A stretch of DNA of 64,000 nt from Deltaproteobacteria bacterium (GCA_003973265.1 QNYZ01000094.1:1804-65803); one strand, 5' to 3'. Shown: positions 7,877-41,207, counted from the first letter of the stretch. Notes: generated by a model not told the origin, from the sequence alone. Numbers and translations are program-made.

Positions 7877-7889
7877 AGGAACGATGCCG

Positions 7890-9641: not shown

Positions 9642-10025
9642 ATTTTGTACGCTAAATTCCTAATACTATATTGGATCAACGGAATATGTCAAGGTTTCAC
9701 CGTAATTCTCGGGCAAATTTAAGGGGTAGTGGTCAAAAAAGTAGAAACAAGATCGGTTTTTCCCCGATGCGGTAGTATAAAAATGACGCAAAAATATTTT
9801 TATATAGTGATGTAATATTATAAAACATAATAAATACAAAAAGATAAATTATGACGCAATATTGATGACGCGACATGAAATAATTACATCTGGAAGTGAT
9901 ATTTGGATAAAAAACGATATTTTATAGAAACTTCGGGCCTCCCTTGACGCCGGCACGCGGAATCACCATATTTATTAAATGACATAAGCGTTGGCTGGCT
10001 GAATCGTTCACCCTTTAAGGAGAAA

Positions 10026-10700: not shown

Positions 10701-10756
10701 TCTTTTGCGGATGACCTTAATCGCGGGGCATGAGCGCGGATTGATTGAGGGGGCTT

Positions 10757-11296: not shown

Positions 11297-11373
11297 GTTT
11301 TCTCATCTTTCGTTGTCTCATGTGTGCGCGGGATTGTCATCGCAGCGGGTGCGGCAAGCCGCCTCGGTTGTCG

Positions 11374-13991: not shown

Positions 13992-14090
13992 TCAAAATGA
14001 TACACGTCTTTAAAAGGTCTATGAATATTGCTTTTTGCCGGGGAAAAACCAAAAAGGCCCCGCATCTGCTGCAGGGCCTGATTAGTCATG

Positions 14091-14167
14091 TGGTCGGGAC
14101 GGCTGGATTTGAACCAGCGACCCCAGCGTCCCGAACGCTGTGCTCTACCAGACTGAGCCACGTCCCG
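14091..14167 (-). tRNA. tRNA-Pro (anticodon CGG)
   Basis: The reverse complement folds as a cloverleaf: CGGGACG TG GCTC AGTCTGGTA GAGC A CAGCG TTCGGGA CGCTG GGGTC GCTGG TTCAAAT CCAGC CGTCCCG A CCA. The CCA end is encoded. Confidence 0.9.
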
Positions 14168-14225
14168 ACAAGAAAACCGAATTTAAGTCATGGTTGAATA
14201 ATTGTCAATATCAATTATGACGAAT

Positions 14226-15521
14226 TCAGCCCTGCCTGAAGGGATGGTTGACAATAATTGTCTGGTTCCGGCCCGGCCCCACGGAGATAATATCCACGGG
14301 TATCCGGGCCAGTTCCTCAATCCGGTTGAGATAGGCCAGCGTGTTGACCGGCAGGTCATCGCGGTTGCGGATATGGGAAATATCTTCCGACCAGCCGGGC
14401 AGGGTTTCGTAAATCGGCTGGCAATCGGCCAGTATACTCAGGTCTGCCGGGAAGTGCGCGATGGTTTCTCCCCGGTATTCGTAACCCGTACAGATATTGA
14501 TGGTATCAAGCCCGCCTAAAATATCCAGCTTGGTAATCGTAAGACCGGTCAGCCCGTTTAAGCGAACGGCGTTCTTCAGGATAACCATATCCAGCCACCC
14601 GCAACGACGTCTCCGGCCGGTAGTGGCACCGAATTCGGCCCCCTTTTTCTGGATGCGATCCCCGATATCGTCAAACAGTTCGGAAGGGAAGGGACCGGCA
14701 CCCACCCGGGTCGTATACGCTTTGGCAATTCCTATAATTCCGGTTAATTGCCCCGGCCCGACTCCGGCACCGCAGCAGGCATTTCCGGACACCACATTGG
14801 AAGAGGTAACAAACGGGTACGTTCCATGGTCAATATCCAGGTGGGTGCCCTGGGCGCCCTCAAAAAGAACCTGCTGCCCGGCGTGAATCCCGTCATCGAT
14901 CAGCACCGACACATTGGCCACGTAAGGGGCCAGGCGTTCGGCAAACCTGCCGTAGGTGGCAATAACGTCTTCGGGATCCAGCGGGTCGGCGCCCAGGTAT
15001 TTTTCGAGGATGAAATTCTTTTCGTCCATAACAGTGATGACTTTTTCCCGGAATCCGGCCGGGTCAATGAGGTCGGCAAAGCGGATTCCGCTTCGCGCGG
15101 CTTTGTCTTCATAGCAGGGGCCGATCCCCCGGCCCGTGGTGCCGATCTTTCCGGCTCCCTTTTTTTTCTCACGGGCCTGATCAAGGGCCTTGTGATACGG
15201 CATGATCAGATGGGCCCGGCTACTGATTTTGATCTTTTCCGGGCGGGTGTCGATCCCTTTTTCCGCCAGATAATCCATTTCGCCGATAAGCACTTCCGGA
15301 TCTACCACCATCCCGTTTCCCAGCAGGCAGGTTTTTCCCTGCAAAATTCCCGAAGGAACCAGATGGCTGATGATCTGCTCTCCCTTGACCACCATGGTAT
15401 GTCCGGCATTGTTGCCGCCTTGAAAACGAACGACAATATTGGCGTCCGCCGCCAGCAAGTCGACTATTTTTCCTTTTCCTTCATCTCCCCACTGGGTACC
15501 GACAATAACGATATTTGCCAC
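14226..15521 (-). CDS. purA: Adenylosuccinate synthase
   Basis: 431-aa ORF beginning [21 protein letters not shown], the canonical PurA P-loop, with GGNNAGHT further on. Confidence 0.97.
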
Positions 15522-15628
15522 ATTAAACTCCTTGGTTTTGATAGATGGTTAAGCGTTTTGCCCCACCCGGGCCCGCACAAAAAATATCACTTTCACCCGT
15601 CAACGGGTTCCTTTTAAATAAAGTGTTG

Positions 15629-16084
15629 TTATCGACGATTTTTGAAAAAATCCTGAATCAAAGTCCGGCATTCATCCCTGCAAACCCCTGCCGTTACGGT
15701 GACAACATGATTAAAGCGGGAATCGGCGCTAAAATTATACAAAGATCCGGCCGCTCCCCATCTGGGATCCGGCGCCCCGTAAACGAGACGGTTGATCCGC
15801 GCATGAATAATCGCTCCCATGCACATCACACAGGGCTCAATGGTAACATATAAGGTGGTGTTCAACAACCGGTAGTTCAGCCGTCTGTGGCCGCCTTCCC
15901 GTAACACCCGGATTTCAGCATGCGCCGTAGGGTCATGGGTGGTGACAACCGCGTTGTGAGCCGTTGAAAGAACCTCCCCGGAGTCGCTGACAAGAATTGC
16001 ACCGACCGGCACTTCACCACCATCCGCGGCTTTTTTGGCTTCATCAATGGCCATGGCCATCAATTTGTCGTCAATTGACCCCAT
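15629..16084 (-). CDS. tadA: tRNA adenosine(34) deaminase
   Basis: 151-aa ORF with the CDA-fold zinc motifs HAE (TAHAEIRVL) and PCVMC. Confidence 0.92.
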   Translation of the reverse strand: MGSIDDKLMAMAIDEAKKAADGGEVPVGAILVSDSGEVLSTAHNAVVTTHDPTAHAEIRVLREGGHRRLNYRLLNTTLYVTIEPCVMCMGAIIHARINRLVYGAPDPRWGAAGSLYNFSADSRFNHVVTVTAGVCRDECRTLIQDFFKNRR

Positions 16085-16254
16085 TGATGAATTATATACC
16101 CCTGACTATTTTGCGGATCAAGAAATAAAATACCTGGCGGGTAAATCGTATTGGAAATATTTGACTGTACGGCCGATTGGATATGAAAAAGAAAAAGGAT
16201 TCTTGACAACCTTTCCGGAAATGTTTAAATACTGCGTCACGATATCTTTCATGT

Positions 16255-16332
16255 GCGCCCGTAGCTCAGCCTGGATAGAGCGCCGGACTACGAATCCGTA
16301 GGTCGCAAGTTCGAATCTTGCCGGGCGCACCA
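16255..16332 (+). tRNA. tRNA-Arg (anticodon ACG)
   Basis: Cloverleaf: GCGCCCG TA GCTC AGCCTGGATA GAGC G CCGGA CTACGAA TCCGT AGGTC GCAAG TTCGAAT CTTGC CGGGCGC A CCA. Confidence 0.92.
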
Positions 16333-16679
16333 ATTCATAAAAACCCTGTCAAGTTTTTTTACTTTTTTCGCTGAATCGTTGCCTTGGACGAAAAAATCCG
16401 GTCTGTATAAACTGTATAAAAAGGTGTATTGTCGGTATGTCGTCGGTTTTGTTGCTGATAACAAGGCCCCTCTCATCGATATTACCAGATCTCGCGGATG
16501 GGCCATGCGGTAATTTTATCATTTTTTGGCCCTGCACCGGTGAAGGGACTATAATTAAACAGGTGTCAGAAAAACAACGCTGAAACGCTTGAAAAGACGT
16601 ATACCTGCGCCGCACGATATCATAGTGTCACCTCAAGATACCTGCATGCAGGCATCCGAACCCGTTTCCTGGGAAATAC

Positions 16680-17945: not shown

Positions 17946-18265
17946 GTTGAAAGTCCCCCCTGATTAGGATTTAACGGCTTTTTTAAGAAAACGAAAAACA
18001 TAGCCGAGATGAAAGATTATTATTCTGTAAAAGAGAGATTGAGAAAATCATAAGATACTAAAAAATAATGAATCCAACCTGGTTTGTCAAATAATCTAAC
18101 TTTTTAAAGCACTGAAGTTTCGAAATCATAACCAGAAAACATTTAAAAGACCCGCTCAAAATTTGAATTATTTTCTGCGGCGCTACCAACATCCCCCTGT
18201 GAAGGCCCCGGCTTCCCGGGTTGCTGTAATTGACAATTAACCAGATTTCTGATTTTAAATATACC

Positions 18266-19627
18266 ATGAATCCAAATACTGATGAAAAAGATACTTCCAC
18301 TCCTGTTACATCTCCGGGAGTTTTAAAAGCCGTTAAATATACTCAACCGGTTAAAAAATTTATCGCAAAAATTGTTTCCGGAAGTTTTCCCCTGTTTTTT
18401 GCAGCTATTTTGGCCATTGCCTGGGCCAATATCAGCCGCCATACCTACCATGATGTATGGTATACCCATATCTCAATAAGCCTGGGGAAATTTTCTATTT
18501 CAAAACCGCTTGCCCACTGGATTGACGAAGCGCTGATGGCTCTCTTTTTCTTTACTGTGGGCCTTGAAATTAAAAGAGAAGTTATCGTAGGTGAACTGGC
18601 ATCCTTTAAAAAAGCACTTTTGCCGGTAACAGCTGCCGCAGGAGGGATGCTGATACCGGCACTCATTTACGTGGCGATTAATCTGAACTCGGATTCCTTG
18701 TCTGGATGGGGGATCCCCATGGCAACCGACATCGCTTTCTCCCTGGCGGTTTTATCGATCCTGGGAAAGCGGATTCCTTTTGGTATCTATGTTTTTCTTT
18801 CAGCTTTTGCCATTGCGGATGATCTGGGCGCTGTTCTGGTGATTGCCCTTTTTTATACCAAAGCGATCGCATGGAAATATCTTTTGTTAAGCCTGCTTTT
18901 TCTGTTCCTCATGGCAATCTGTAACCTGTTATGGATTCGAGTAACTTTGGTATATGCCGTACTGGGAATCGGTCTCTGGTTTGCCATTCTCGGATCTGGT
19001 ATTCATGCGACTGTGGCCGGTGTATTAACGGCCATGTTTATTCCTGCCAGGGGAAAGTATGATACGCAAACGTTTATAAATAAGGTTCAGCGGTATATCC
19101 ACGAATTTAATTGCCAGGGGGAGTATGAATGCGGATATACGATTTTGCTGAACAAAAACCACCAGAACGCGGTTCACCATATTGACATGGCCTGTGAGGA
19201 AGTAAAAACCCCCTTGCAGAAGCTGGAATGGAATCTCAATCCATGGGTTGCTTATCTTATTCTCCCTTTGTTCGCTTTGGCCAATTCGGGTATTGTTTTT
19301 CGTGATCTCAATTTTGGTGAATCCCTTTCCCATCCAGTTACTTTAGGGGTTCTTCTGGGTTTGATTGTGGGAAAGCCTGTGGGGATCTCTCTGTTTACTT
19401 TTCTATCCGTCAAACTGCTGAAAACAGAACTCTATACAGGGATCACCTGGCAGCACATTCTGGGCGCCAGCATGCTCGGCGGAATCGGGTTTACCATGTC
19501 GATATTTATTACAGGGTTGTCCTTTGAAAACGCTGCCTATACTGAGCTTTCAAAGCTGGGAATTATTTTTGCTTCACTTGTTTCCGGCGGTGTCGGATTT
19601 TTTATCCTTCGCAGCGCAAGTAAATGA
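18266..19627 (+). CDS. nhaA: Na+/H+ antiporter NhaA
   Basis: The ORF track gives 18230-19627 with a TTG start; I prefer the ATG at 18266. NhaA hallmarks are FFFTVGLEIKRE, IPMATDIAF and AIADDLGAV (the paired Asp motif), with a multi-pass membrane profile. Confidence 0.9.
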   Translation: MNPNTDEKDTSTPVTSPGVLKAVKYTQPVKKFIAKIVSGSFPLFFAAILAIAWANISRHTYHDVWYTHISISLGKFSISKPLAHWIDEALMALFFFTVGLEIKREVIVGELASFKKALLPVTAAAGGMLIPALIYVAINLNSDSLSGWGIPMATDIAFSLAVLSILGKRIPFGIYVFLSAFAIADDLGAVLVIALFYTKAIAWKYLLLSLLFLFLMAICNLLWIRVTLVYAVLGIGLWFAILGSGIHATVAGVLTAMFIPARGKYDTQTFINKVQRYIHEFNCQGEYECGYTILLNKNHQNAVHHIDMACEEVKTPLQKLEWNLNPWVAYLILPLFALANSGIVFRDLNFGESLSHPVTLGVLLGLIVGKPVGISLFTFLSVKLLKTELYTGITWQHILGASMLGGIGFTMSIFITGLSFENAAYTELSKLGIIFASLVSGGVGFFILRSASK

Positions 19628-19643: not shown

Positions 19644-20519
19644 TCATTTAAAAAAATCGGTAAAGTGATACCACTGGTTCGGATGGCACCGTGCCATGTC
19701 TGCCAGAAGATCTGCGTAGGTCTGGGCGGCCCGGATGATGGCACTATTGCGGCGGGTGCGGTCTTTGGCTTCCACGTTGATGGGCGGGGCGCAGTAGAGA
19801 TGGTAGTGTTCCGGGCCGGTGCGGAGGGAGAAAAAGACGTAAATCGGTTTATGTGACATGAGCGCGAGGATATAGGGGGCCGCTGGCAGTTGAATATCGT
19901 GGCCGAGAAAATCAACGCTCACGGTGCGTTGACCGGGATGCCAGACCCGGTCACCGGTTAAAGAGACGAACTCGCCGGCTTTAAGACGATTGACGCCCTC
20001 GACAATGACAAAGGGTGATGACTGTTTTTCATCTACAGCAATGATGGTGATACCGGTTTCCTGCAGGGCGTCTTTCTGGCGTTTTTCAACCTGTTCCCGG
20101 TGTTTGCGCCCCATGAACAGCAGAATTTTCGCGCCCTCGATTTTTTTCTGCAGAAAATGGGCGGCCATCTCCCAGTTGCCCAGGTGAGACATCAGGATAA
20201 TCCCCCCGGTTTTATTTTCGGCCGCCTTTTGAAGGTAGTTCCATCCCGTGGACGTGTAGGTGATCTGGTCCATATCCAGGTGGCGGTAGCGGTCAAAAAA
20301 TACGGTGGTGAACTGCTGGTACTGGCGAAATGCGGCCCCCAGCGCAGCGACGCGATTTTTTTGGGGAAAGAGCGCCCGGTAGAAGCGGACGCTGCCGGCC
20401 ACCCGTTTGGGGAAAAAGAGAAAATATCCCGTGGCGATAAACCAGCAGAACACCCGAAGCACCCAGGGGCCGCCCCACCGGGTCAGTCGAATGATGGTAT
20501 CGTAAAGCGGGGTGTTCAT
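19644..20519 (-). CDS. Lysophospholipid / lipid A-type acyltransferase (LPLAT, LpxL/HtrB-like; ApeD-like)
   Basis: The ORF track extends to 20720, but the Met at 20519 (MNTPLYDTIIRL...) forms an ATGA overlap with the MMPL stop at 20516-20519. N-terminal TM segment, then an MSHLGNWE motif (HX4D/E-type acyltransferase box). Confidence 0.75.
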   Translation of the reverse strand: MNTPLYDTIIRLTRWGGPWVLRVFCWFIATGYFLFFPKRVAGSVRFYRALFPQKNRVAALGAAFRQYQQFTTVFFDRYRHLDMDQITYTSTGWNYLQKAAENKTGGIILMSHLGNWEMAAHFLQKKIEGAKILLFMGRKHREQVEKRQKDALQETGITIIAVDEKQSSPFVIVEGVNRLKAGEFVSLTGDRVWHPGQRTVSVDFLGHDIQLPAAPYILALMSHKPIYVFFSLRTGPEHYHLYCAPPINVEAKDRTRRNSAIIRAAQTYADLLADMARCHPNQWYHFTDFFK

Positions 20520-23038
20520 CTGGACCTGTCTTTCCGGTGGAAAGTTTTTCTCAACAGCGGCGGTAAAATAGCAAATGTACCCAGCAGCGTATACCCGATC
20601 CCCAGCGAAGTGGCGATGCCAGCGCTTTGCAGCATGCGGTGGTCGGCAAAACACATGGCGCCGAATCCCATCAGGGTGGATGAAGCGGCCAGAAGGATCG
20701 TGAGGCGGACGATCTGGCATTCGGGGCCGGCTTCATCTTTGTAGCGCTGATAGGCGCAAACCATGTATAGGGCATAGTCGATACCCATACCGATGATGAC
20801 GATGGACAGCATCAGGCCGGGGATATCCAGGGCACGACCCATCAGTTTCAATGTTCCCAGGGTACAGATGAAGGAAAAGACCAGGGGCGACAGGGCGATG
20901 GCCATCAGTTTGAGACTGCGGAAAAAGATGAGCAGCAGTAGAACCGCACCGGTGCCGAGGATCAATATCATCCGGACAAAGGTTGATGAAATCAGGCGGC
21001 CGAGGCGGTGGGCGAAAAAAACCGGATCAAAGAGTTTTACTGACTGCAGTTGAACAGTATCCGGTTTTGATCTGTCCGGCTTTGTAAAATCAGCGGTGGA
21101 AAAAGAACGGTGAAACGCTTCGGGGTTGTAGGCAGGGCCTTTTTCAAGGGTCGCCGCCAACATCCATCCCCGCTGGTTCCGGGGAGGCGAGATCCCGGCA
21201 ATCTGGAAAAAATGGTCGGGCAGCGGGGGCGTTTCCGCCCGGGTGGTATCGATCAGGGTAAACAGGTGGGAAAAGAGGGCGTCATTAAACCCGGTTTCCC
21301 CGGCGGCCGTCCGGGCGGCCTGTTTAAAGGCGGCGGTTCTTTCGGGATTCCAGAATTTTCGCCAATTGGCAAACCGGGCGCGGGCCTGTTTTTCTCCCGG
21401 AAAAAGGGCCGAGATGGCCATGGCCGATCGGATCTTTTCTCTTTCAATCATCGGGACCAGTGCTTCGGTCAGTTGATCGGCCCGGTCGCGGAGTGACGAC
21501 AAATCCCCCGCCTCCAGAGTGAGAAAAATACGGCCCGAAAAGTCGCCCCAGGTCTCGGTGATCTTTTTTTCCGCATCCCGGGTGGCCCGGGAAACCGAAT
21601 TGAGGTCACGAAGGTTGATGTCAAAGCGGGGCGTGGCGAATCCGACCAGGGCCGCGCACAGGATCAGGGCGACAATCCATCCGGTTTTCCCCCGGTTCAG
21701 CACCAGGTAATCCCCCAGGGCCCTGAGCGGCAGGCCGCGCGGGCGGGTGACCGGCGGAATGCGTTTAAATACCGCTGGAAAAACTGTGTGGACAAAGACA
21801 AACGAAAATCCCATACCCATGGCGGCGAACAGGCCGATTTCGGAAAGCAGGGGAAATCCGGAAAACACCAGAGAAAGGAAGGCACCGACCGTTGTCATGG
21901 ACGCCAGCAGCCCCACGGCCCAGACTTCCCGGGCCGCCTGCCGCCCAGTGGACGGAATCGGCCGGTCAAGAAAGAGGAGATAGGCGATCCCGTGATCCAC
22001 GGTGATGGAGATAATGGCACCGCCAAACCCGACGCTGAGTAGAGAGATGGTTCGGAAAAAAAGAGAGTAGGTGAACAGCGCCGCCATGGTGCCGAACACC
22101 GCCGGCAACAGGGCCAGCAGACCCAGATATGGCCGGGGAAAGGCAAAGAGAAGTAAGATGATGATTCCCGCCGTAGCCATGATGATGGCGCGTCTCGTAT
22201 CCGCTTTGGCCAGGCGTTCGTTGTCCAGGGCTGCCCGCCACGCGCCGACGGATGTCAGTACAACGCAGTGCGTGCCGTTTAAGCAGGTCTTATTTACCTC
22301 CCGGGAGATGCGGTGGACCAGCGCGTCGGCGTTTCGGGCAAACCGTGTATCCGTCCCCGAACCTTTGGGGACGGCCGTAATCAGCAGATGGTCCCCCGTG
22401 GCTGTCATCAAAAATCCGTCGCGAAAGCGGGCTTTTTTCCCGGGCATCAGACCGGAAAGTTTGGCCAGAACGATATTTCGGAATTCCAGTGGATCCCTGG
22501 CCATCCAGTTGGCCTGGCCCAGCCCCTCCATCTGCTGCAGTTCGTGCAGGTTGGCAGCCAGCCGGCTCCTGATGCTGCCGGGTGTGATCAGCGGTGCCAG
22601 GTGCCGGCTCAGATCGTCTTCGGTCAGCAGCATGGGAAGGTAGTCGGTGATATGTGTCATCAGCAGGGGAAATTCCTGGCGCATGTCGGCCAGCCCCACC
22701 TGTTGAAACAGGCCGGAATCTTCCAGCGCCTGTTCAACCTGATGGCCATATGTGACCAGACGGTTCGGATCGGCAGCGGGCAGGGATAGATCGATGACGA
22801 ACATATCCTGGGCCGGATGTGCGTCGATGACATCCCTGGCCGCTGAGATGACCGGATCGCTGGTCGGGATTGCGCTGATGATATCGGTGTTGAATGTGAG
22901 CCGATAAACGGCCGTGACGGAAAAAAGAACGGAGGCGATGACCGCCGTCAGAATCACCCCCCAGCCGATCCGGTATTTTGTGTCCACGTAATCCGCAGAC
23001 TTTAAATCCGGAGAAAGATTCTGCCGGGCGGGGGTCAT
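20516..23038 (-). CDS. MMPL/RND-type lipid exporter (ApeM-like)
   Basis: The ORF track extends to 23215, but the Met at 23038 (MTPARQNL...) forms an ATGA overlap with the GT2 stop. About 840 aa with two bundles of TM helices separated by large soluble loops, as in MMPL predicted exporters of aryl polyene clusters. Confidence 0.8.
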   Translation of the reverse strand: MTPARQNLSPDLKSADYVDTKYRIGWGVILTAVIASVLFSVTAVYRLTFNTDIISAIPTSDPVISAARDVIDAHPAQDMFVIDLSLPAADPNRLVTYGHQVEQALEDSGLFQQVGLADMRQEFPLLMTHITDYLPMLLTEDDLSRHLAPLITPGSIRSRLAANLHELQQMEGLGQANWMARDPLEFRNIVLAKLSGLMPGKKARFRDGFLMTATGDHLLITAVPKGSGTDTRFARNADALVHRISREVNKTCLNGTHCVVLTSVGAWRAALDNERLAKADTRRAIIMATAGIIILLLFAFPRPYLGLLALLPAVFGTMAALFTYSLFFRTISLLSVGFGGAIISITVDHGIAYLLFLDRPIPSTGRQAAREVWAVGLLASMTTVGAFLSLVFSGFPLLSEIGLFAAMGMGFSFVFVHTVFPAVFKRIPPVTRPRGLPLRALGDYLVLNRGKTGWIVALILCAALVGFATPRFDINLRDLNSVSRATRDAEKKITETWGDFSGRIFLTLEAGDLSSLRDRADQLTEALVPMIEREKIRSAMAISALFPGEKQARARFANWRKFWNPERTAAFKQAARTAAGETGFNDALFSHLFTLIDTTRAETPPLPDHFFQIAGISPPRNQRGWMLAATLEKGPAYNPEAFHRSFSTADFTKPDRSKPDTVQLQSVKLFDPVFFAHRLGRLISSTFVRMILILGTGAVLLLLIFFRSLKLMAIALSPLVFSFICTLGTLKLMGRALDIPGLMLSIVIIGMGIDYALYMVCAYQRYKDEAGPECQIVRLTILLAASSTLMGFGAMCFADHRMLQSAGIATSLGIGYTLLGTFAILPPLLRKTFHRKDRSR

Positions 23039-23784
23039 GGGGCGCTCCGCCGGCGTCGAAAGTTGGGCTGGAAAAGGATCCGCTGAAAAATAAGCCGGGA
23101 AAAGACGACCGTGTTGCGCATAAAATCGACAAAGGGCCGGAAATGAGACACGCGGGCGACTCCGGGCTGATAATGGACCGACACCGGCGCTTCCAGCACG
23201 GGGATCCCGCGCCATCGGGCTTTAACCAGGCTTTCCACTTCGTATTGAAAGCGTCGGGCACGGATATCCAGGTCAAGGGCTTCGGGCAGCGGGTACAGCC
23301 GGAAGCCGCTCTGGGTATCTGATACGCCCGGGCCGCCGGCGAGGCGGACCCAGAAATTGGAAAATTTGCGGCCGTATCGACCGGTCCAGGGGATTTTTCT
23401 GCTGTTCATTCCCAATCGTTTCCCAACGACAATCGGGCGGCTGCCGGGGGGGATGGCACGAACCAGGGAATGGTAATCAGACGGGTGGTGCTGGCCGTCG
23501 GCATCCACGGTAACGGCCCATGCGGATTTCTTTACGGCCACCCGGAACCCGGTTGTCAGCGCCGCGCCCTTACCCCAGTTCTTCACGTGGCGGATAAAGG
23601 TAATATCGATCAGCCTTCTGTCTTTTCTTGGATCAACACGGGCCATTTCGTCGGTGGAACCGTCATCGACCACGATCACGGGAAAGCCCGTTTTTCTGGC
23701 CTTGTCAATGACATCCCAGACCGTGGTATAATGGTTGTAGACCGGGATAACGAAACTGAACCGGTTCGGCAGGGGCAGCGTCAT
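23035..23784 (-). CDS. Family 2 glycosyltransferase (ApeJ-like)
   Basis: 249-aa ORF. FSFVIPVYNH...VIVVDDGSTDE is the GT-A/GT2 signature, with a DADGQH (DxD-type) motif. ATGA overlaps at both ends. Confidence 0.85.
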   Translation of the reverse strand: MTLPLPNRFSFVIPVYNHYTTVWDVIDKARKTGFPVIVVDDGSTDEMARVDPRKDRRLIDITFIRHVKNWGKGAALTTGFRVAVKKSAWAVTVDADGQHHPSDYHSLVRAIPPGSRPIVVGKRLGMNSRKIPWTGRYGRKFSNFWVRLAGGPGVSDTQSGFRLYPLPEALDLDIRARRFQYEVESLVKARWRGIPVLEAPVSVHYQPGVARVSHFRPFVDFMRNTVVFSRLIFQRILFQPNFRRRRSAP

Positions 23785-25541
23785 CGGTCCGCCTGTTCGC
23801 TTAATTCCGGCGCAGTAATAAACGCCAACGCCCAGGTTCCCGGCCCCATGTGGGTACCCGATGTCAGGGATAGCGGCTGAAGCATTATTTCCGCATCGGC
23901 AAACTGCCGGGCTATTTCGGGCAAAACAGTTGATTCGATCCAGTTCCGATTATCGGAATACTCCAGCATGATCGTTAAGGGCGCGCGCGCTGTTGATTCA
24001 GGTGATGCGGTTTTCAGTTGATCGAGGGCAAAGGCCAGCTGGGCCGGGCGGTTTTTCACCACGGCGACTTTCTCGGCGCCCGTGGCCACGGGCCGGATCA
24101 CCGGTTTGAAATGAAGGGCATCGCCGAAAAAGGCACTGGCTTTCGACAATCGTCCCCCGGCCGCCAGGTATTTCAATCGGTCGAGAAACACGTATTCATC
24201 ACATCGGTCAATGGCACGGATGGCAAACTGGATGACCGCACCCGGATCTTTGGTACGGGCGGCAAACCGGGCCACGGTCAGGGAAATCAGCCCCAGACGG
24301 CCGGAAGCGGTCCCCGTATCGATGACAATGAGGCGGCCGTCGGGATCATGCCGGGTCTTCCAGTCCATCACCGCCTGGTAATTGCCCGTGTAGACCGACC
24401 CGACGCAGAGGTAGAGCACACGCCCATAGCGCGCCATGACATTTTGATAGCAGGCGTGCCGCTCGTAATCGGATGCCTGGGATGTGGATGCCGGTTTTCC
24501 GTCGCCAAGGGCCGCATACAGTTTTTGAGGTGGGATCCGTGTTTCCGGCAGGGATTGACCGTTAAAGTTGATATAGCTGTCGAGCAGGGTTATTCCCAGG
24601 CGGCGGGCATCGGAGCGCGTCACCGATCCGGCGGCGTCTGTCATGATGTGGATCGCCGGGGTGGCAGGGCCGGTTTTAAAATCAGCCATCTGGCGGGTTA
24701 TGTTGTCGTCATTCCAGGCGATGACTTCTCCGATGGACGCGGCGGTCTGGCGCCATTTTTCCGGGTCGCGGGTATGCAGGTGGATTTTGGCGTACCCGTC
24801 TTTTGTGACAACCACGGTGCTGTCACCGGCCGATCGGAGTGTTTCCTCCCACTTTAAACCCGAATGCCCCAGCCGGACAACGGTATCCACGCACCAGGTA
24901 TCCTCCGGGGCATCCGAGAAAGAACCGTTCACCTTCAAGAGGCCTTTGAACCGTACAAAAGGAGAGGGTATCGGAACGGCAGGATCGGTCAGGGGGCTGA
25001 AAAATCCTTCAAAAAAAAGATAGATCCCCAGCGCTCCGGCATCCACCACACCGGCCTGTTTCAGCTTTTCCAGGTGATCGGGTGTGTGGCGAACCGTGCG
25101 GGCCAGCGCATCGAGAATCCGCTTTACATCGAGCGGGGATGGCGTTGTCGTCAGCGGTGCCAATGTGGCCGACAAGGTGTCGAATACAGACAGCATGGTA
25201 CCGGGCATGGGGGCATGAACTGCCTGCCGGGCATCGACGGCGGCCTTTTTAACCGTACCGGGCAGCAACATCCAGGTGTCGGCCGCGAGCAGCCCGGATA
25301 GAAACCGGACGGCAATATTGCCCGAATTGCCCCGTGCCGCAAACATCAGCTGGCGCGCCGCTTCCGTGGGGTTTCGTGGGAGCTGTCGCAGCGGCGACAG
25401 ACTTAAAACAAGGTTCCGGCCGGTATCCCCGTCGGCAACGGGATATACGTTGATGTCGTCGAGCAGATCGGCCCACCCGGTCAGGCGTTCCAGCCCGGAG
25501 ATAAAATGATGATGGAAATAGTGATGCCAGTCCGGACTCAT
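23781..25541 (-). CDS. Dak2 domain / DegV domain fusion protein (fatty-acid-kinase-like, FakA N-domain plus FakB-like lipid binder)
   Basis: 586-aa ORF. N-terminal VADGDTGRNL is the Dak2 phosphate-binding motif. The C-terminal half has DegV-like layout, starting IHIMTDAAGSVTRSDARRLGITLLDSYINFNGQS. Confidence 0.75.
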   Translation of the reverse strand: MSPDWHHYFHHHFISGLERLTGWADLLDDINVYPVADGDTGRNLVLSLSPLRQLPRNPTEAARQLMFAARGNSGNIAVRFLSGLLAADTWMLLPGTVKKAAVDARQAVHAPMPGTMLSVFDTLSATLAPLTTTPSPLDVKRILDALARTVRHTPDHLEKLKQAGVVDAGALGIYLFFEGFFSPLTDPAVPIPSPFVRFKGLLKVNGSFSDAPEDTWCVDTVVRLGHSGLKWEETLRSAGDSTVVVTKDGYAKIHLHTRDPEKWRQTAASIGEVIAWNDDNITRQMADFKTGPATPAIHIMTDAAGSVTRSDARRLGITLLDSYINFNGQSLPETRIPPQKLYAALGDGKPASTSQASDYERHACYQNVMARYGRVLYLCVGSVYTGNYQAVMDWKTRHDPDGRLIVIDTGTASGRLGLISLTVARFAARTKDPGAVIQFAIRAIDRCDEYVFLDRLKYLAAGGRLSKASAFFGDALHFKPVIRPVATGAEKVAVVKNRPAQLAFALDQLKTASPESTARAPLTIMLEYSDNRNWIESTVLPEIARQFADAEIMLQPLSLTSGTHMGPGTWALAFITAPELSEQADR

Positions 25542-26008
25542 ACGGTACCGTCCAGGGCATGACGAATGTATTCAGGAATTTCCAGCAGCAGCTCTTTTTC
25601 CGGCATTTGTACGGCCACCTGTTCCCCCCTGGCCGTGGCGCACAAAATGTTATCCGCAATCCGTCTGATTTCAAAATCAATAACGATTTTAATGTGGGCT
25701 TCAATCAGCGATGCCGTGCAGGTAAACTCGTCGCCATATGAGAGTGAGGCGATGTGCTTGCAGTTTGTTCGCGTGATGGGAAGCAAAAGACCGGTTTTTT
25801 TGTACAGACCATACAATTCGATACCAGACTGATGAAAGAGTTCAAAGCGTGCCAGATCAAAGTATTTATAATAGTTCCCATGCCAGACCACCTGCATGGG
25901 GTCCAGATCGTGAAAGGGTACCTGCAGGGTAATCCGACAGGTTTGAATCGGTTGTTTTTTTGCCATGATGCATGATCCCATATTCATTTCCTGTCCGGAT
26001 GGATTCAT
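25538..26008 (-). CDS. 4HBT/YbgC-type hotdog acyl thioesterase
   Basis: 156-aa ORF. ITLQVPFHDLDPMQVVWHGNYYKYFDLAR matches the 4HBT-class catalytic Asp context. It is the first gene of the ATGA-linked operon. Confidence 0.75.
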   Translation of the reverse strand: MNPSGQEMNMGSCIMAKKQPIQTCRITLQVPFHDLDPMQVVWHGNYYKYFDLARFELFHQSGIELYGLYKKTGLLLPITRTNCKHIASLSYGDEFTCTASLIEAHIKIVIDFEIRRIADNILCATARGEQVAVQMPEKELLLEIPEYIRHALDGTV

Positions 26009-26354
26009 AGCCTGATTTAGTGTTTAATTGCAACCGGTGCGTACCCGGGCCGGAGAGAAAGCGCCGTCACTGCACTTGATATGGCCCCGACCTTATTCCT
26101 CCCGGTTTCCCTGGCACGGTCTTACATTTACAGCCAGAGATTCCTTGACGCAATGGCCGTTTTTTATTACACTTGAGTAGATCACGGCCAGACAGCATGC
26201 TGTCTAAACCCCCTTTCTTTTGTACCCGGAAACGGTTACGCAGACCGCCATGCCGGCCAGCCGGTCGGAGCATGCCGGAATGGGCGTTGAATAATCACAT
26301 GGTAACCGGAAATCAGAGGCAGAACAATACATATATGACTACTCAGGAGTGACC

Positions 26355-27059
26355 ATGGTGGATGAAACAGGAACAGCAACCGGTTATTTTTTCAATGCCC
26401 TTTATCAGGCGTACGTCCATCGCAAAACAGGCGTGCTGACAGCAACCAATCAAAAAGAAACCGTGGCCATTTTTATTAAAGAAGGGGTGCTCATCCATGC
26501 CACTGGTTTTCAGGAAAAAATCCTTTTGGGGTATCTGCTGCAAAACAAGGGGCTCATTTCGGAAAAGCAGCTGGCAGAATGCCTGGAACAGTCGATCGCA
26601 GAGAATCAGTCGCTGGGAAAAACCCTGGTGTTAAATGGGTATATCACCATTGATATCCTGACCGCCATGATTCGTAAACAGGCGGTACTCACTGTGGCCG
26701 CTCTGCTGATCTGGCCGGATATCAGATTCGAATTCAGGGAAATGCCTTCCAGCGAGGATGCTATTATACCGGTCCGTATCGACATCCTCGGCACCATCTA
26801 TGAAGCAGTTCGTCGGGTTGAAAAAATATCAATTATTAAAAGATACCTTTGGGACCCGGCCTTCGTATTTGGAAAAGTACCTGTGTCCAATCCGGATGCG
26901 ATCAGGCTGACAGCAGAAGAAGCTGCTGTTTTGGAGCAGGTCAATGGAAACCGGACAATCGCCCGGATTGTTGAAAAGGGTATAATAGGTGAAAATGATG
27001 CTTACCGCTGCCTGATGATCCTGTTTTCCATCGGGAGAATTGAGCTGCTCAATGCCTGA
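26355..27059 (+). CDS. DUF4388 (PatA-N-like) domain protein
   Basis: The ORF track starts at a GTG at 26349. The ATG at 26355 lies 5 nt after AGGAG. The pattern FNALYQAYVHRKTGVLT...IFIKEGVLIHA...LLGYLLQNKGLISEKQL is typical of DUF4388, and a second similar repeat follows. Confidence 0.6.
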   Translation: MVDETGTATGYFFNALYQAYVHRKTGVLTATNQKETVAIFIKEGVLIHATGFQEKILLGYLLQNKGLISEKQLAECLEQSIAENQSLGKTLVLNGYITIDILTAMIRKQAVLTVAALLIWPDIRFEFREMPSSEDAIIPVRIDILGTIYEAVRRVEKISIIKRYLWDPAFVFGKVPVSNPDAIRLTAEEAAVLEQVNGNRTIARIVEKGIIGENDAYRCLMILFSIGRIELLNA

Positions 27060-27131: not shown

Positions 27132-29108
27132 TTAAAACGGTACATTATCTTCGTTGCGCTGCCAGGGGCTGATTTGATCATAATCATCAAATTCGGCCGG
27201 TTCGGAGTCCACATCGCCCGTATCGATCAGTTTTTCGGGCAGGGTTTGAAGGAAATAGACCGGCTCTCCCGACCCGTAGGTGCGCCCGGCGGAGTAGGGC
27301 ATCTGTATTGGCCCGTGGGGGCTGTACGTCCGGGTGATGATTAATTCGTCTTTGGCGCGGGTCATGGCCACATAGAGGGTTCGTCGCTCTTCCTCTTCCT
27401 GGTCCCGCACCCCCATGCTGCGAATATGCGGGTACATGCCCGGTTCCACACGGATGAGATAGCAGACCGGGGCTTCGGTCCCCTTGGCGCTGTGGGCGGT
27501 GGTCAGGGTCACAAGATCGGTTTCTTCCAGACGCCGGGATTCGGTGGTTGAAATCGGGTCGAGGGTGTACGTCTCGATAAACGCGAGCAGGCTGCGATGG
27601 CGCGCGGCCAGGCGGGCCAGCAGGTCGAAATCTTTTTTGCGAACCTTCCAGTTGTCGTACCGGTTTTCCAGGATCGGCTCCAGAAACTGCCCGGTCTGTC
27701 GGATCGTTTCGGCCGGGTTATCCCAGAACTCCTGCACCAGGTTGATCCCGTTGATAATATTCGATCTTCCCTTCAGCCTTATTTTCAAGGCATCAATGGC
27801 ATCATCCATATGGGCGTGGGCCCGCATGTCCCGGATCATTTTGGCGGCCGTCACATCCCCGATTCGGGGCCACATGGTCAGGTATCGCATCCAGGCCAGC
27901 TCGTCATGCTGGCTGGCCGATGCGCGGATCAGGCAGAGGAGATCCTTGACATGGGCCGCCTGGAGCAGGCTGACGCCACCGACAAACCGGTAGGGGATCT
28001 TTTTTTCCACCATGAACGATTCCACGGCCCGGGCGCCGTAACCGGTGCGGGTGATAATCATGTGGTCTTTCCAGGAAGCGCCGGCCTCGTGCCGCTCGAT
28101 CAGGTCGTCGGCGATCCAGCGGGCCTCGTCAAAATCACTGTCGAAATTGAGCAGGCGGGGCGTACTGACCGTCCGGCGATGGGCGTGCAATTGCTTGTTG
28201 TAGCGGATGGGCGAGTCTGCAAGCAGCCAGTTGGACAGGTCCAGTATGCCCTGGGTAGAACGGAAATTTTCTTCCAGACGCAGAACCACCGCATCGGGAA
28301 CCCGGCTGGTAAACGAATGGACGTTTCGAAAATCCGCGCCCCGGAACGCATAAATACTCTGGGCGTCATCGCCCACGCAGAACAGCTGGGCCGGATCGCG
28401 CAGCCCGTCCAGGATCAACCATTGCAGCGGGTTGGTGTCCTGCATCTCATCAACTAAGACATGGTCGTAAAATCGCCGCACCCGTTCACGAACCGATGGA
28501 TCTTCATGGAGCCGCTTGGCAAAAACGAAGAGAATATCATCGTAATCCAGGTACCCGTTTTCCCGTTTACGTTGATCAAATTTGATAGCCGCGGCACAAA
28601 TCCGCTCGACCATTTCCGGTTCGTAATCAGTATAGCGATTCAGGTATTCCGCCATGGGCTGGGTGGTGTTGCGGGCAAAAGAGCAGAGCCGGACCAGCTC
28701 CGATGCCCGGGGAAATTTTTCGCCCTTTTGGCGGAATTCAACCCGGATAAGTTTCATCAGCTGGTTCTGATCGTCGCGGTCGATGACCGTAGTCCCCTCC
28801 AGGCCGAAAAGCGTGGGCATCCGCCGCATGGTATACAGACAGAAGTGATGAAAGGTTCCCGCCATCAGTGCCACGCGGTCCCGGCCAACGATGCTTTTCA
28901 ACCGTTCCGTCATCTCCCGGGCGGCCCGCCGGGTAAAGGTCAGCATCAGTATCCGTTCCGGGTCGACCCCCTGCCGGATTAAATGGGCGGCCCGGGCAAT
29001 AATCGTCCGGGTTTTACCGGTACCGGCTCCAGCCAGTACGAGGACATGTCCCTGATCGTATGTGGCGGCCCGTTCCTGTTCCGTGTTCAGTTCAAGTAAT
29101 TCGGTCAT
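27132..29108 (-). CDS. UvrD/Rep/PcrA-family ATP-dependent DNA helicase
   Basis: 658-aa ORF. Walker A VLAGAGTGKTRT, motif II VDEMQD, and further SF1 helicase motifs (TAHSAKGTE, VAMTRAK). Confidence 0.92.
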   Translation of the reverse strand: MTELLELNTEQERAATYDQGHVLVLAGAGTGKTRTIIARAAHLIRQGVDPERILMLTFTRRAAREMTERLKSIVGRDRVALMAGTFHHFCLYTMRRMPTLFGLEGTTVIDRDDQNQLMKLIRVEFRQKGEKFPRASELVRLCSFARNTTQPMAEYLNRYTDYEPEMVERICAAAIKFDQRKRENGYLDYDDILFVFAKRLHEDPSVRERVRRFYDHVLVDEMQDTNPLQWLILDGLRDPAQLFCVGDDAQSIYAFRGADFRNVHSFTSRVPDAVVLRLEENFRSTQGILDLSNWLLADSPIRYNKQLHAHRRTVSTPRLLNFDSDFDEARWIADDLIERHEAGASWKDHMIITRTGYGARAVESFMVEKKIPYRFVGGVSLLQAAHVKDLLCLIRASASQHDELAWMRYLTMWPRIGDVTAAKMIRDMRAHAHMDDAIDALKIRLKGRSNIINGINLVQEFWDNPAETIRQTGQFLEPILENRYDNWKVRKKDFDLLARLAARHRSLLAFIETYTLDPISTTESRRLEETDLVTLTTAHSAKGTEAPVCYLIRVEPGMYPHIRSMGVRDQEEEERRTLYVAMTRAKDELIITRTYSPHGPIQMPYSAGRTYGSGEPVYFLQTLPEKLIDTGDVDSEPAEFDDYDQISPWQRNEDNVPF

Positions 29109-29304: not shown

Positions 29305-29916
29305 CTATTGTTGATCCCGATACCCTGCTATCAGCTCGCGTACGTTTTTTTTATGCGCATAATAGATGATCCCGGCGGTTAAAAGGGTGCCCGCCACCGC
29401 CATGCCATCTGTCCCGCACCGGGCCAGGGTCCCGATGGCCAGCACCATGACCATCATGAAAGATCCGATAAACGGCTGCCGCGTGGCACCGTAGGCCGTC
29501 AACCACAAAATCATGCCGATGCCGCAAGACAGAGGAGAGAGCGCCAAGACAAACCCCAGGTAGTTGGCCACGCCTTTCCCCCCCCGGAACCGGTGAAAGC
29601 AGGGGAGGCGGTTGCCGATAATCAGGCCCAGTCCGATCCAGGGTACCTGGTAAAGCGGCAGAATGCTCAGCGCGACGAAGGCCAGGCTGACGGCTTTTCC
29701 CATTTCCAGGATCAGTACCCCTACCGCCCACCCCAAACCGGCCTGACGGTAGACGTTGGTTGCGCCGGGGTTGCCGCTGAACCGGGCACGGGGATCCTCT
29801 CTGCCCAGGATCCGAAACAGGCCGATGGATACATTGATGGATCCGGCGATGTAGGCCGCGGTGAATAACAGTATAAAACGCATGGGCTTCGGCTCCGGTT
29901 TCAGGCGATAATCCAA
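29305..29916 (-). CDS. plsY: Glycerol-3-phosphate acyltransferase PlsY (acyl-phosphate dependent)
   Basis: 203-aa ORF; the likely start is the Met at 29883. Motifs AYIAGSIN and FSGNPGATNVYR are PlsY signatures, with a multi-pass membrane profile. It is the last gene of the long minus-strand lipid operon. Confidence 0.88.
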   Translation of the reverse strand: MDYRLKPEPKPMRFILLFTAAYIAGSINVSIGLFRILGREDPRARFSGNPGATNVYRQAGLGWAVGVLILEMGKAVSLAFVALSILPLYQVPWIGLGLIIGNRLPCFHRFRGGKGVANYLGFVLALSPLSCGIGMILWLTAYGATRQPFIGSFMMVMVLAIGTLARCGTDGMAVAGTLLTAGIIYYAHKKNVRELIAGYRDQQ

Positions 29917-30773
29917 TCAGGCGGACCGGTGGAGACTCCGCTGATCGGACGCATTTCGACCCCGCTGATTGCTTCAACGATTTCTCCGGAAAGAGATTCA
30001 ATCCGGATATCAAAAGACAACCGGCCGCCGGACGTCTCAAGCGGTTGGACACGGGCAGCGTATTGTTCGTCCGGGGCCGTCGGCTTGAAGATGGTTCGCT
30101 TACGAATCGCAACGGGATAGGCCACGATCCGGGCATACCGCTGGCCCCAGGCACAGGCCACGTGGAAGGCCGCATCAAGCGGGAAGGGCGATCCCAGGAT
30201 GCCGGGAGCCGGGCGCGTGGTTGCCGGGGTGCCGGCCATGCCGGTGGCATGGGTGGGGAACAGGCAGATATGGCCGGTCAGGCTCTGGAATCCCGGCCCG
30301 AAAGGGACCAGTTCACGGTAAAGCCGATCGGCGCTGACTGAAAAGCCCTCCTGGGCCGCATATAATCGCATATCCCCCGGCGGAACCGGCTGCGCCCTGG
30401 AAAGGGCGTTCGGACGCGTGCCGGGTGCGGCGAATACCGCCGATATATGTTCTTTCATCCGGGTGATGGTACCCGATCTGGAGGTAAACCGGGTAGACAG
30501 CGTCCCCCTGGTATCGCCTGTATCGGCCACAGCCTGGATGGTTATCCTGAGATCGACATCGGTGTCGTCCGCCCCGACGGGCAATAATCGCGAAAAGGCA
30601 ATATCCCGCATACGGGTAACATCCGTCTGCGGGCGATGTTTGAGCACCGTGTCAGACAGAATCCGGAGTGCTTCCACCGCAGGCAGCACCGCCTGGTATC
30701 CCAGGCGGTGGTCCCGGATATACGCAGGGATGGTATAGTTAACTGAATCGGTTATCGGGGAAAATTTTTCCAT
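29901..30773 (-). CDS. Stand-alone PKS-type double-hotdog dehydratase (PS-DH-like)
   Basis: 290-aa ORF. N-terminal HRLGYQAVLP (His...Pro of the HxxxGxxxxP box, with the Gly shifted by one position) and C-terminal LDAAFH (DxxxH/Q box). The size fits a double hotdog. Confidence 0.6.
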   Translation of the reverse strand: MEKFSPITDSVNYTIPAYIRDHRLGYQAVLPAVEALRILSDTVLKHRPQTDVTRMRDIAFSRLLPVGADDTDVDLRITIQAVADTGDTRGTLSTRFTSRSGTITRMKEHISAVFAAPGTRPNALSRAQPVPPGDMRLYAAQEGFSVSADRLYRELVPFGPGFQSLTGHICLFPTHATGMAGTPATTRPAPGILGSPFPLDAAFHVACAWGQRYARIVAYPVAIRKRTIFKPTAPDEQYAARVQPLETSGGRLSFDIRIESLSGEIVEAISGVEMRPISGVSTGPPDWIIA

Positions 30774-31231
30774 AATCGGATGGTTTTTTTATCGATGCCC
30801 ACCGGGGTTCCGGTGGTGTTGGTGGCGCAATGCCGGGTGAACCCGTTGCAGATAACCTCCCCGGTTTCCCGATGGGTGATCACATATTCAAATCGCAGGC
30901 GCACCCGTTCCATTTCTGCCGGGCGGGTATGCACAAAAATGGGATCATCATAGTAAAGCGGCGTAAAATAGTTGACGCCCATGGCGATGATCGGATAGAT
31001 AAACCCGCTTTTTTCCACTTCGCGGTACGGGTAACCGGTATCGCGCATGAGAGACGCCCGCCCCAGCTCAAAGTATCGCAGGTAGTTGGCGTGATAGACC
31101 ACCTGGGAACGGTCGGTATCGGCGTAGAGGATGCGATGGGTGCAGCGGTGCCAGAAACGACCGTCGGTCAGGTCCTTGATATAATGCGTATCGGTTTGAT
31201 CTGTTTCCGGTTGAAACGGTTTGGGTTTCAC
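30752..31231 (-). CDS. 4HBT/YbgC-type hotdog thioesterase (ApeK-like)
   Basis: 159-aa ORF. ILYADTDRSQVVYHANYLRYFELGR is the classic YbgC/4HBT active-site context. Confidence 0.8.
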   Translation of the reverse strand: MKPKPFQPETDQTDTHYIKDLTDGRFWHRCTHRILYADTDRSQVVYHANYLRYFELGRASLMRDTGYPYREVEKSGFIYPIIAMGVNYFTPLYYDDPIFVHTRPAEMERVRLRFEYVITHRETGEVICNGFTRHCATNTTGTPVGIDKKTIRLWKNFPR

Positions 31232-31232
31232 G

Positions 31233-32498: not shown

Positions 32499-32577
32499 GT
32501 ACGTTCAGTCTGTTATGTCTACCTGTAAGCCTGTCAATCCGTATCGGTTGTTTAGCCGGATGGCGGGCAGGTTGCGT

Positions 32578-33831: not shown

Positions 33832-33876
33832 CGGATGTCATTTCACGGCGTCAGGACAGCCGCGGGTCCCTCTGTT

Positions 33877-34875: not shown

Positions 34876-34923
34876 TTAAAATACTCCAAATAATCAACCT
34901 GTTACGGGTAAGATCCGGGCCTG

Positions 34924-36051: not shown

Positions 36052-36060
36052 GGGAAACCT

Positions 36061-36324: not shown

Positions 36325-36357
36325 GCTATGGTCTCCAAGGGTTTCATATTATTGTGT

Positions 36358-41159: not shown

Positions 41160-41207
41160 AAGATAAATTAAACAAATAGTTATATAAAAAACATCAAGGA
41201 GTAGGTT

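Follow-up and report, generated by a model that had tools for sequence, protein, structure and literature searches.

The window analyzed here is a 64,000-nucleotide stretch of DNA (QNYZ01000094.1:1804-65803) whose host is an uncultured hydrothermal-vent member of the Desulfobacterota. On its minus strand, five adjoining genes between positions 26008 and 19644 encode, in order of transcription, a hotdog thioesterase (TE1), a single-chain fatty-acid kinase, a family 2 glycosyltransferase (GT2), an MMPL-type lipid exporter, and an LpxL/PatA-family acyltransferase. These genes may form the lipid-anchoring and export module of an aryl-polyene-type type II polyketide/fatty-acid cluster (the "ladderane" type of antiSMASH), with an acyl-phosphate route included; we regard this reading as evenly poised. 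The notable result is the composition of the module. Judged by homology, an aryl-polyene-type anchoring module appears to have acquired a thioesterase, a single-chain fatty-acid kinase, and the acyltransferase PlsY, a combination undescribed in the literature found. The TE1-kinase pair probably feeds the cluster product into a membrane lipid as an acyl-phosphate. The five domain assignments of an earlier, sequence-only reading are all borne out by Pfam (4HBT_2; Dak2, FakA middle domain, and DegV; Glycos_transf_2; MMPL; Lip_A_acyltrans). Unless stated otherwise, conservation counts below are based on 80 relatives' loci fetched around the kinase gene.

A Putative Single-Chain Fatty-Acid Kinase

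The second gene of the operon (23781-25541, minus strand) encodes a 586-residue protein with Pfam matches to Dak2, FakA-like_M, and DegV. Residues ~9-291 comprise the N-terminal Dak2 domain and the middle domain of FakA, and residues 297-576 form a complete DegV/FakB domain. The NCBIfam matches are YloV and DegV, and the PDB sequence matches include 7w7h, 7rm7, and 1pzx. The Dak2 domain matches 7rm7 and 8vip at E 4e-18 and carries the metal-binding DGDTG motif, in which D37, D39, and T40 are invariant among the 16 aligned family members on which residue conservation was judged. In the middle domain, the invariant residues C217, H254, and H256 align with the CTE...HVH of Streptococcus suis FakA; their counterparts are the FakA triad Cys240/His282/His284 (PMC9136124). 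The DegV domain (Pfam E 3.7e-38) retains invariant TSQAS, GSVYTG, GGR, and HMGPG motifs, and T353/S357, S382, R464, and H564 are likewise invariant. In an AlphaFold model of the kinase (pLDDT 73), the DegV half superposes on fatty-acid-loaded FakB/DegV structures over the whole length of the latter, with TM scores of 0.80-0.88 in Foldseek. The C-terminal, FakB-docking domain of FakA is absent among the Pfam matches of the kinase, and the FakB-like domain appears to be fused where that docking domain would stand. The protein is best described as a putative FakA fused to a FakB/DegV fatty-acid binder, with acyl-phosphate formation as its predicted activity.

This three-domain architecture is common to all of the best 120 database matches. 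At least 553 species-level genomes, from Desulfobacterota, SAR324, and Spirochaetota, encode a relative of the kinase, annotated there under no other name than "DegV family protein." The protein shares with the FakA/FakB systems of Firmicutes the Dak2 DGDTG motif, the Cys-His-His middle domain, and a DegV/FakB fold with carboxylate-binding Thr/Ser/His and Arg residues. However, the Firmicutes systems consist of two polypeptides, whereas here there is one. The setting also differs, as the predicted activity is found in Gram-negative anaerobes, in a specialized-lipid cluster, and with a dedicated, tightly linked hotdog thioesterase. In Streptococcus pneumoniae and Enterococcus faecalis, an established bypass of PlsX runs from a thioesterase (TesS/TesE) through FakAB to an acyl-phosphate, which PlsY uses to acylate the sn-1 position (PMC10449490). 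All three enzyme types of this route are encoded in the window. The literature search found no link between DegV, Dak2, Fak, or PlsY and aryl polyene, ladderane, or Desulfobacterota clusters.

The Thioesterase-Kinase Pair

TE1 (25538-25966, minus strand) is a hotdog thioesterase of the 4HBT/YbgC type (Pfam 4HBT_2, E 1.3e-11) and resembles ApeK, the thioesterase of the Escherichia coli ape cluster. In BLASTP it is 31% identical to E. coli ApeK (E 9e-20), within the range of 31-35% covered by the two thioesterases of the window, and its orthologs conserve a VPFHDLDP...VWHGNY motif. The TE1 gene lies directly 5' of the kinase gene in 67 of the 75 loci with room for it. The distance from the TE1 stop to the kinase start is within -4 to +10 nt in 67/69 relatives, in a tally that chooses the start closest to the upstream stop and is thus biased to tight spacing. 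The sequence at the junction varies, and its forms across relatives include TAGCAATG, TGAAATG, TAAATG, TAATG, and ATGA.

Gene order 3' of the kinase gene is variable. The GT2, MMPL, and acyltransferase genes may adjoin, lie kilobases apart, or stand at the opposite end of the cluster. The TE1-kinase pair alone is fixed. Its junction is the only one with a conserved constraint, as would fit two proteins acting as a pair.

An In-Cluster PlsY

A further gene, overlooked in the sequence-only reading, gives the "activation" step assigned to the kinase a likely purpose. The last gene of the neighboring core operon (29305-29883, minus strand), directly after a PS-DH gene, encodes a PlsY acyl-phosphate:glycerol-3-phosphate acyltransferase (Pfam G3P_acyltransf, PF02660, E 1.3e-33). 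Acyl-phosphate is the acyl donor of PlsY enzymes. The open reading frame (ORF) reaches 29916, with the ATG at 29883 as the probable start. The protein matches the full PF02660 model and contains SGNPGATN and H..GGKGVA, with GSIN instead of the usual GSIP as motif 1. The gene had been masked by a longer ORF (29351-30250, minus strand, 299 aa) that overlaps both the PS-DH and PlsY genes and has no family match; this ORF was rejected.

The order PS-DH then PlsY recurs at L062, L086/L087, and L089/L090. A second arrangement is found at L002, L010, and L026, from two SAR324 genomes and one unclassified bacterium, where kinase, GT2, MMPL-methyltransferase, acyltransferase, ApeD-like, and PlsY genes follow each other on the same strand. 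In total, PlsY lies inside the cluster in at least seven lineages and two gene orders. A metagenome scan with PlsY returned two loci in which it stands beside an ApeQ-like ketoreductase gene and the rest of the cluster is absent.

A Split ApeJ and an ApeM-Like Exporter

The remaining three proteins were compared by BLASTP with the ape cluster of E. coli CFT073. GT2 (23035-23784, minus strand, 249 codons) matches residues 8-232 of ApeJ with 31% identity (E 1.6e-26), and its best NCBIfam match is PpgS, a lipid-phosphate N-acetylgalactosamine (GalNAc) transferase; it thus resembles lipid-phosphate N-acetylhexosamine (HexNAc) transferases. The acyltransferase (19644-20519, minus strand, 291 aa, PF03279) matches residues 360-550 of the same protein with 25.5% identity (E 8e-15) and has no BLASTP match to ApeD; its best NCBIfam match is a phosphatidylinositol mannoside (PIM) acyltransferase. 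The DDGSTD and DADGQH motifs of GT2 and the HX4(E/D) motif of the acyltransferase are common to ApeJ and invariant in the family, the latter in 27/27 sequences. In 14 relatives the acyltransferase gene directly follows the GT2 gene, which is the domain order of ApeJ. Together, the two genes appear to be a split ApeJ.

The sequence-only reading had taken GT2, MMPL, and a lysophospholipid acyltransferase as accessory genes of aryl polyene (APE) clusters. That holds for GT2, the equivalent of the N-terminal half of ApeJ, and for MMPL, the equivalent of ApeM, but the acyltransferase corresponds to the C-terminal half of ApeJ and not to ApeD. The "re-acylation" assigned to it is therefore better read as O-acylation of a sugar, since GT2 and the acyltransferase would together make up ApeJ. 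In Xenorhabdus, the aryl polyene lipid carries the polyene esterified to the 6-OH of a GalNAc that is phosphate-linked to diacylglycerol (10.1101/2020.12.19.423268; PMC8253772). In the proposed pathway, ApeJ attaches first the sugar and afterwards the polyene, and export falls to ApeM, ApeL, and ApeN (10.1101/2020.12.19.423268; PMC8253772). PpgS and a PIM acyltransferase as the best named matches fit this published chemistry.

The exporter (20516-23038, minus strand, 840 aa, Pfam MMPL) is an MMPL/RND-type protein with 23% identity to ApeM (E 2.8e-11), and it matches the HpnN-like model of NCBIfam at 103 bits. Scores against HpnN/MmpL exporters and PatA/LpxL acyltransferases are far below the equivalog cut-offs, so the two proteins are only family-level relatives of these, with HX4E kept in the acyltransferase. 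In most relatives (L002, L036, L044, and ~25 other loci, e.g., L044:16683-19772), the MMPL protein has an extra C-terminal domain of ~225 aa. This tail is a class-I S-adenosylmethionine (SAM)-dependent methyltransferase (VIDIGCGYG; Pfam Methyltransf_11/25), and the proteins of the window and of L001, its closest distinct relative, are without it. At L086, a polysaccharide deacetylase gene (15551-16399) follows the MMPL-methyltransferase gene, which would agree with an N-acetylhexosamine as part of the lipid head group.

Set against the APE clusters of E. coli CFT073 and Xenorhabdus doucetiae, the window has homologs of ApeJ (both halves), ApeK, ApeM, ApeO and ApeC, ApeQ, ApeI, ApeP, and ApeE. 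LolA-like and lipoprotein genes stand in the equivalent place, a lipid-phosphate-sugar anchor would likewise be acylated with a polyene and sent to the outer membrane, and 4-nt overlaps are frequent in the E. coli cluster too. However, the two halves of ApeJ are here separate genes that flank the MMPL gene, and the ketosynthase (KS) and chain-length factor (CLF) form one protein. Additions to the cluster are four radical SAM enzymes, two further FabF-like KS genes, and PS-DH. The FakA-FakB fusion and PlsY are absent from the E. coli ape cluster and unreported in the cited APE literature. Homologs of ApeD (at E<=1e-4), ApeH, ApeG, ApeB, ApeA, and a recognizable ApeN were not found in the 64-kb window.

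The Neighboring Core Cluster and Its Co-Occurrence

The core biosynthetic operon (29901-40573, minus strand) was identified by Pfam, NCBIfam, and Ape matches. Its order is acyl carrier protein (ACP), fused KS-CLF, B12-radical SAM enzyme (TIGR04072), ApeI-like dehydratase, ACP, two radical SAM enzymes, two FabF-like KSs, a second thioesterase (TE2), and PS-DH, and the same order is found in L086, L088, and L089. A divergent operon (40728-44614, plus strand) encodes an ApeP-like dehydratase, a ketoreductase, a LolA-like carrier, a lipoprotein, and a second B12-radical SAM enzyme. The 730-aa KS-CLF matches ApeO in its N-terminal part (35%, E 5.5e-52) and ApeC in its C-terminal part (28%, E 5.7e-8). 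The ketoreductase (41208-41945, plus strand) is 48% identical to ApeQ, the ACP 42% identical to ApeE (E 1.6e-17), and the dehydratases match ApeI (E 3e-8; also ApeI-like in Pfam) and ApeP (E 1.8e-5). The LolA-like protein is recognized by Pfam LolA (E 5.8e-19) and reaches 110 bits against flexirubin LolA2 (cut-off 125), with ApeL at only E 4.5e-4. The lipoprotein encoded beside it (42603-43283) has an LGGC lipobox and no DUF3261 or ApeN match. On the other strand, an ORF of 345 aa (40941-41978, minus strand) was rejected as the antisense of the ketoreductase gene, from which its apparent conservation derives.

The 452-aa B12-radical SAM enzyme scores 386.4 bits against the TIGR04072 cut-off of 360, an equivalog-level match. 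The TIGR04072 enzyme, together with several divergent FabF paralogs, ACPs, and radical SAM genes, is a point of likeness to the "ladderane-type" clusters found in both anammox bacteria and Deltaproteobacteria (Rattray et al., 2009). However, the producers here are not anammox bacteria. Pfam scans of the cluster ORFs revealed no phytoene-desaturase-like or phenylacetyl-CoA-ligase gene. DegV is not mentioned in the paper on the ladderane-type clusters (Rattray et al., 2009).

Neither an aromatic ammonia-lyase nor an ApeH homolog is encoded in the 64-kb window, so its product may be without an aryl head group. ApeH-like genes occur in nine relatives and ApeD-like genes at 21 relatives' loci; the ideas that the kinase replaces ApeH and that the kinase route replaces ApeD were rejected, since these nine and 21 relatives, respectively, carry both. 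An ammonia-lyase gene (PF00221, E 5e-150) stands directly 5' of the TE1-kinase pair at L044:7963-9516 and at 28 further loci from Syntrophales, Smithella, and Spirochaetota.

Whether the operon accompanies the cluster at 29-45 kb, a question raised in the sequence-only reading, was assessed in the 29 loci with at least 8 kb on either side of the kinase gene. At least one core gene is present in 27 of these, and at least two in 26. The kinase locus (L019) and the core operon (L086) adjoin each other on a single Desulfosarcinaceae contig, as one supercluster of ~35 kb. The core cluster of Desulfosarcina ovata subsp. sediminis is without a kinase gene within 10 kb. In the window, a DUF4388 gene (26349-27059, plus strand) and a UvrD-type helicase gene (27132-29108) lie between the operon and the core. 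Neither has a counterpart in any of the 80 relatives' loci, so the 3-kb separation is a lineage-specific insertion, and the two genes were rejected as cluster members. With the co-occurrence and the contiguous supercluster, the proposal that the operon belongs to the cluster despite the gap of ~3 kb stands.

The DUF4388 protein reaches 37 bits, against a 38-bit cut-off, in a model of an MshE-related cyclic di-GMP-binding motif. In D. ovata subsp. sediminis (AP021876), PS-DH is fused to a phosphopantetheinyl transferase domain (L088:17379-18914) where the window has PlsY. This bacterium is cultured and has the core cluster in the same order, which makes it a possible experimental host.

Operon Layout and ATGA Overlaps

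The operon is flanked by a convergent NhaA gene (18230-19627) and by the divergent DUF4388 gene, with which it shares an ORF-free intergenic region (25967-26348) as its presumed promoter region. The sequence-only reading had described an ATGA stop/start overlap at every junction, and all four were recovered on the minus strand at 25538-25541 (TE1/kinase), 23781-23784 (kinase/GT2), 23035-23038 (GT2/MMPL), and 20516-20519 (MMPL/acyltransferase). In each, the upstream gene ends in frame at the TGA, and the next ORF begins at the ATG. The overlaps make one compact transcription unit probable, with coupling by termination and reinitiation predicted from them.

The same reading had placed the starts of the MMPL and acyltransferase genes at these overlaps, downstream of those in a longest-ORF listing (23215 and 20720, respectively; the five listed ORFs span 26008 to 19644). 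Several lines of evidence favor the shorter starts. The extensions (23215-23039 and 20720-20520) fall within the conserved C-termini of GT2 and MMPL. The GC content at third codon positions is 0.46 and 0.51 in the extension frames and 0.72 and 0.70 in the frames of the upstream genes, with gene averages of 0.66-0.69. The extension peptides match seven and two relatives' loci (E<1e-3); the GT2 and MMPL C-termini that they overlap match 56 and 29. Orthologs of the acyltransferase align from residue 1, and their start sits on the upstream stop in 10/20 loci. Additionally, Shine-Dalgarno-like pairing favors the short starts, with -5.8 and -4.4 kcal/mol compared with -3.5 and -3.1 for the long starts. 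For TE1, by contrast, the start at 26008 assumed in the sequence-only reading is not favored. The N-termini of 14 orthologs, including that of L001, align with an internal ATG at 25966 (MAKKQPIQTC...); this is probably the true start, which makes the listed one 14 codons too long.

Other same-strand junctions in the window have 4-nt overlaps in 4-5 of ~36 cases, the E. coli ape cluster has them at 6/17, and locus L086 at 3/15; the chance of four in succession is roughly 3e-4 to 1.5e-2. Four in a row are unusual for one operon, yet expected somewhere in a genome. Among relatives, overlaps of -4 are found in 6/69, 13/58, 4/30, and 10/20 cases for the four junctions in operon order, with the last count including GTGA. 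L001 (65-74% protein identity) retains 3/4, with a +3 nt gap at the kinase/GT2 junction and ATGA kept at GT2/MMPL and MMPL/acyltransferase. The all-ATGA pattern is lineage-specific and not conserved, and is read here as ordinary compaction. Strict coupling at every junction, as proposed in the sequence-only reading, fails as a conserved property, since tight spacing throughout the family is confined to the TE1-kinase junction.

One possibility, to which we give a little less than an even chance, is that the pattern has no special function, being ordinary compaction in a lineage rich in 4-nt overlaps, and that expression ratios are independent of it. The lack of conservation at the four junction types, the fluid gene order and content 3' of the kinase gene, and the commonness of 4-nt overlaps in the E. 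coli ape cluster and elsewhere in the window all favor this explanation. However, the TE1-kinase junction is tight among relatives whatever its exact form, L001 keeps most of the overlaps, and Shine-Dalgarno-like pairing at the four operon starts (-4.4 to -6.9 kcal/mol) lies above the coding background (-2.9 +/- 2.6).

Two further 4-nt overlaps were observed in the core operon on the minus strand: ATGA at 36759-36762, where the B12-radical SAM gene meets an alternative start of the ApeI-like dehydratase gene, and TTGA at 40307-40310, between the ACP and KS-CLF genes.

Transcription and the Leader Region

The operon of a Smithella relative is present in at least 19 RNA libraries. A single weak RNA run for a Smithella SCADC locus was left out of account. 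Contigs from three runs cover the 3' end of the lyase gene, TE1, and the kinase gene (X11 5618-8401; X12 5723-8291; X17 6265-7526), and another covers GT2 and MMPL (X11 9159-14456). These contigs support expression and co-transcription of the TE1-kinase pair in the relative, with the reservation that RNA libraries can contain DNA. Between the kinase and GT2 genes of the Smithella locus (L032:8401-8469), where all of the RNA-library assemblies break, several alternative joints and loose ends suggest strain-variable or repeated sequence.

No Rfam family was found inside the leader (25967-26348). The sole match at E<=1 in the surrounding 10 kb (E 0.98) falls at 25920-25959, just beyond the leader and inside the TE1 gene. 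The fold of the leader is no better than that of shuffled sequences (z-score 0.32), and a leader RNA or riboswitch 5' of the operon was rejected on both counts. Scans for promoters and terminators gave signals not above shuffled expectation.

A Proposed Route and Its Alternatives

The route proposed here takes its gene content, homologies, and synteny from observation; we infer the order of steps and all substrates. TE1 would hydrolyze the acyl-ACP made by the cluster. The DegV/FakB domain of the kinase would take up the free acid, which the Dak2 and Cys-His-His domains would phosphorylate to an acyl-phosphate. PlsY would then move the acyl group to the sn-1 position of glycerol-3-phosphate, beginning a phosphatidic-acid-type anchor that bears the special chain. 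GT2 would glycosylate the lipid phosphate, probably with a HexNAc, and the PatA/LpxL-type acyltransferase would O-acylate this sugar with a second, ACP-bound chain. Finally, the ApeM-like MMPL protein would carry the finished lipid over the inner membrane, and the LolA-like protein and the lipoprotein would take it to the outer membrane. The distinctive part of this scheme is a private acyl-phosphate route (thioesterase, FakA-FakB kinase, and cluster PlsY) that would put a polyene or radical-SAM-modified chain at sn-1 of the glycerol anchor. We advance this part tentatively, with a little less than an even chance.

Several observations weigh against the scheme. Hydrolysis of ACP-bound intermediates by E. 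coli ApeK was not seen in vitro (PMC8253772). PlsY lies within the fetched range in only ~8 of ~90 loci, so most relatives would need a PlsY encoded elsewhere. The cluster PlsY may also be the only, housekeeping copy of the genome, and a 55%-identical PlsY of D. ovata stands in an unrelated context. An ApeD-like PlsC-type acyltransferase is also encoded in 21 relatives, where the kinase route would add to the canonical attachment and not replace it. In D. ovata subsp. sediminis, the core cluster lacking a nearby kinase gene is complete. The bias of the junction tally noted above bears on the case for the pair. The search of RNA libraries for the window sequence returned none, the sequence being present in four hydrothermal-vent DNA metagenomes only, and every Smithella RNA assembly breaks in the 267-nt spacer between the kinase and GT2 genes.

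An acyl-phosphate that is made but not destined for PlsY is an unlikely alternative. It could be used directly by the acyltransferase of the operon, or housekeeping PlsX could return it to acyl-ACP in an "ACP swap" from the dedicated ACP to AcpP. The acyltransferase gene directly follows the kinase gene in ten relatives, and most loci show no PlsY within 10 kb. Exchange of FakB-bound acyl-phosphate with PlsX is known in Firmicutes. However, the known PF03279 enzymes (LpxL, LpxM, and PatA) use thioester donors, and PlsY is embedded in the clusters of at least seven lineages, in two gene orders.

The main competitor for the place of the kinase in the pathway puts it at the start, and we consider it slightly less probable again. 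The kinase would activate a free starter acid, such as an aryl acid made by the lyase, to an acyl-phosphate for loading onto the ACP, and TE1 would proofread mis-loaded ACP. Its attraction is that the ammonia-lyase gene stands directly 5' of TE1 and the kinase gene in 29/80 relatives, with an RNA-library contig joining the 3' end of the lyase gene to both. Additionally, the window has no adenylating enzyme of the ApeH type, and ApeK has been suggested to act in proofreading (PMC8253772). However, TE1 and the kinase occur without the lyase in the window, in L001, and in the Desulfobacterales-type loci, and an ApeH-like ligase that could load the starter is present in 7/29 lyase-bearing loci. 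In the annotated clusters no PlsX-type acyl-phosphate:ACP transacylase was found, and the partner that does recur within the cluster is PlsY, an enzyme that spends acyl-phosphate on making glycerolipids. The DegV half also retains the full FakB fold, which forms a long-chain tunnel (PMC9136124).

FakAB systems are housekeeping in Firmicutes, but it is very improbable that TE1 and the kinase serve general fatty-acid salvage or housekeeping here and only happen to lie near the cluster, given that the pair lies inside the cluster in 27/29 well-flanked loci across Desulfobacterales, Syntrophales, SAR324, and Spirochaetota and is co-directional and tightly joined with ApeJ-like genes.

A Second Lipid System in the Window

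At 1388-9641 (minus strand), the window encodes a 2162-aa PfaA-like synthase (ketosynthase, acyltransferase, ACP, ketoreductase, and dehydratase domains) and, after it, a PfaD-like enoyl reductase. The related cluster at L089 also has a PfaC-like gene nearby.

Significance

Clusters of the aryl-polyene type are among the most widespread bacterial biosynthetic clusters, and how their products are attached to membrane anchors, including the role of ApeK, is only partly understood (PMC8253772). Such clusters are usually labeled "ladderane," or their kinase gene is left as "DegV family protein," and PlsY was masked here by a longer spurious ORF. A natural single-chain FakA-FakB could ease structural and mechanistic work on Fak catalysis. 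In this family an ApeK-like thioesterase stands beside a fatty-acid kinase, joined in several lineages by PlsY, which offers a testable proposal for the way in which a special, ACP-bound chain could enter glycerolipid synthesis. If the private acyl-phosphate route is real, the system would be the first fatty-acid kinase recruited to secondary lipid biosynthesis and the first natural Fak in one polypeptide.

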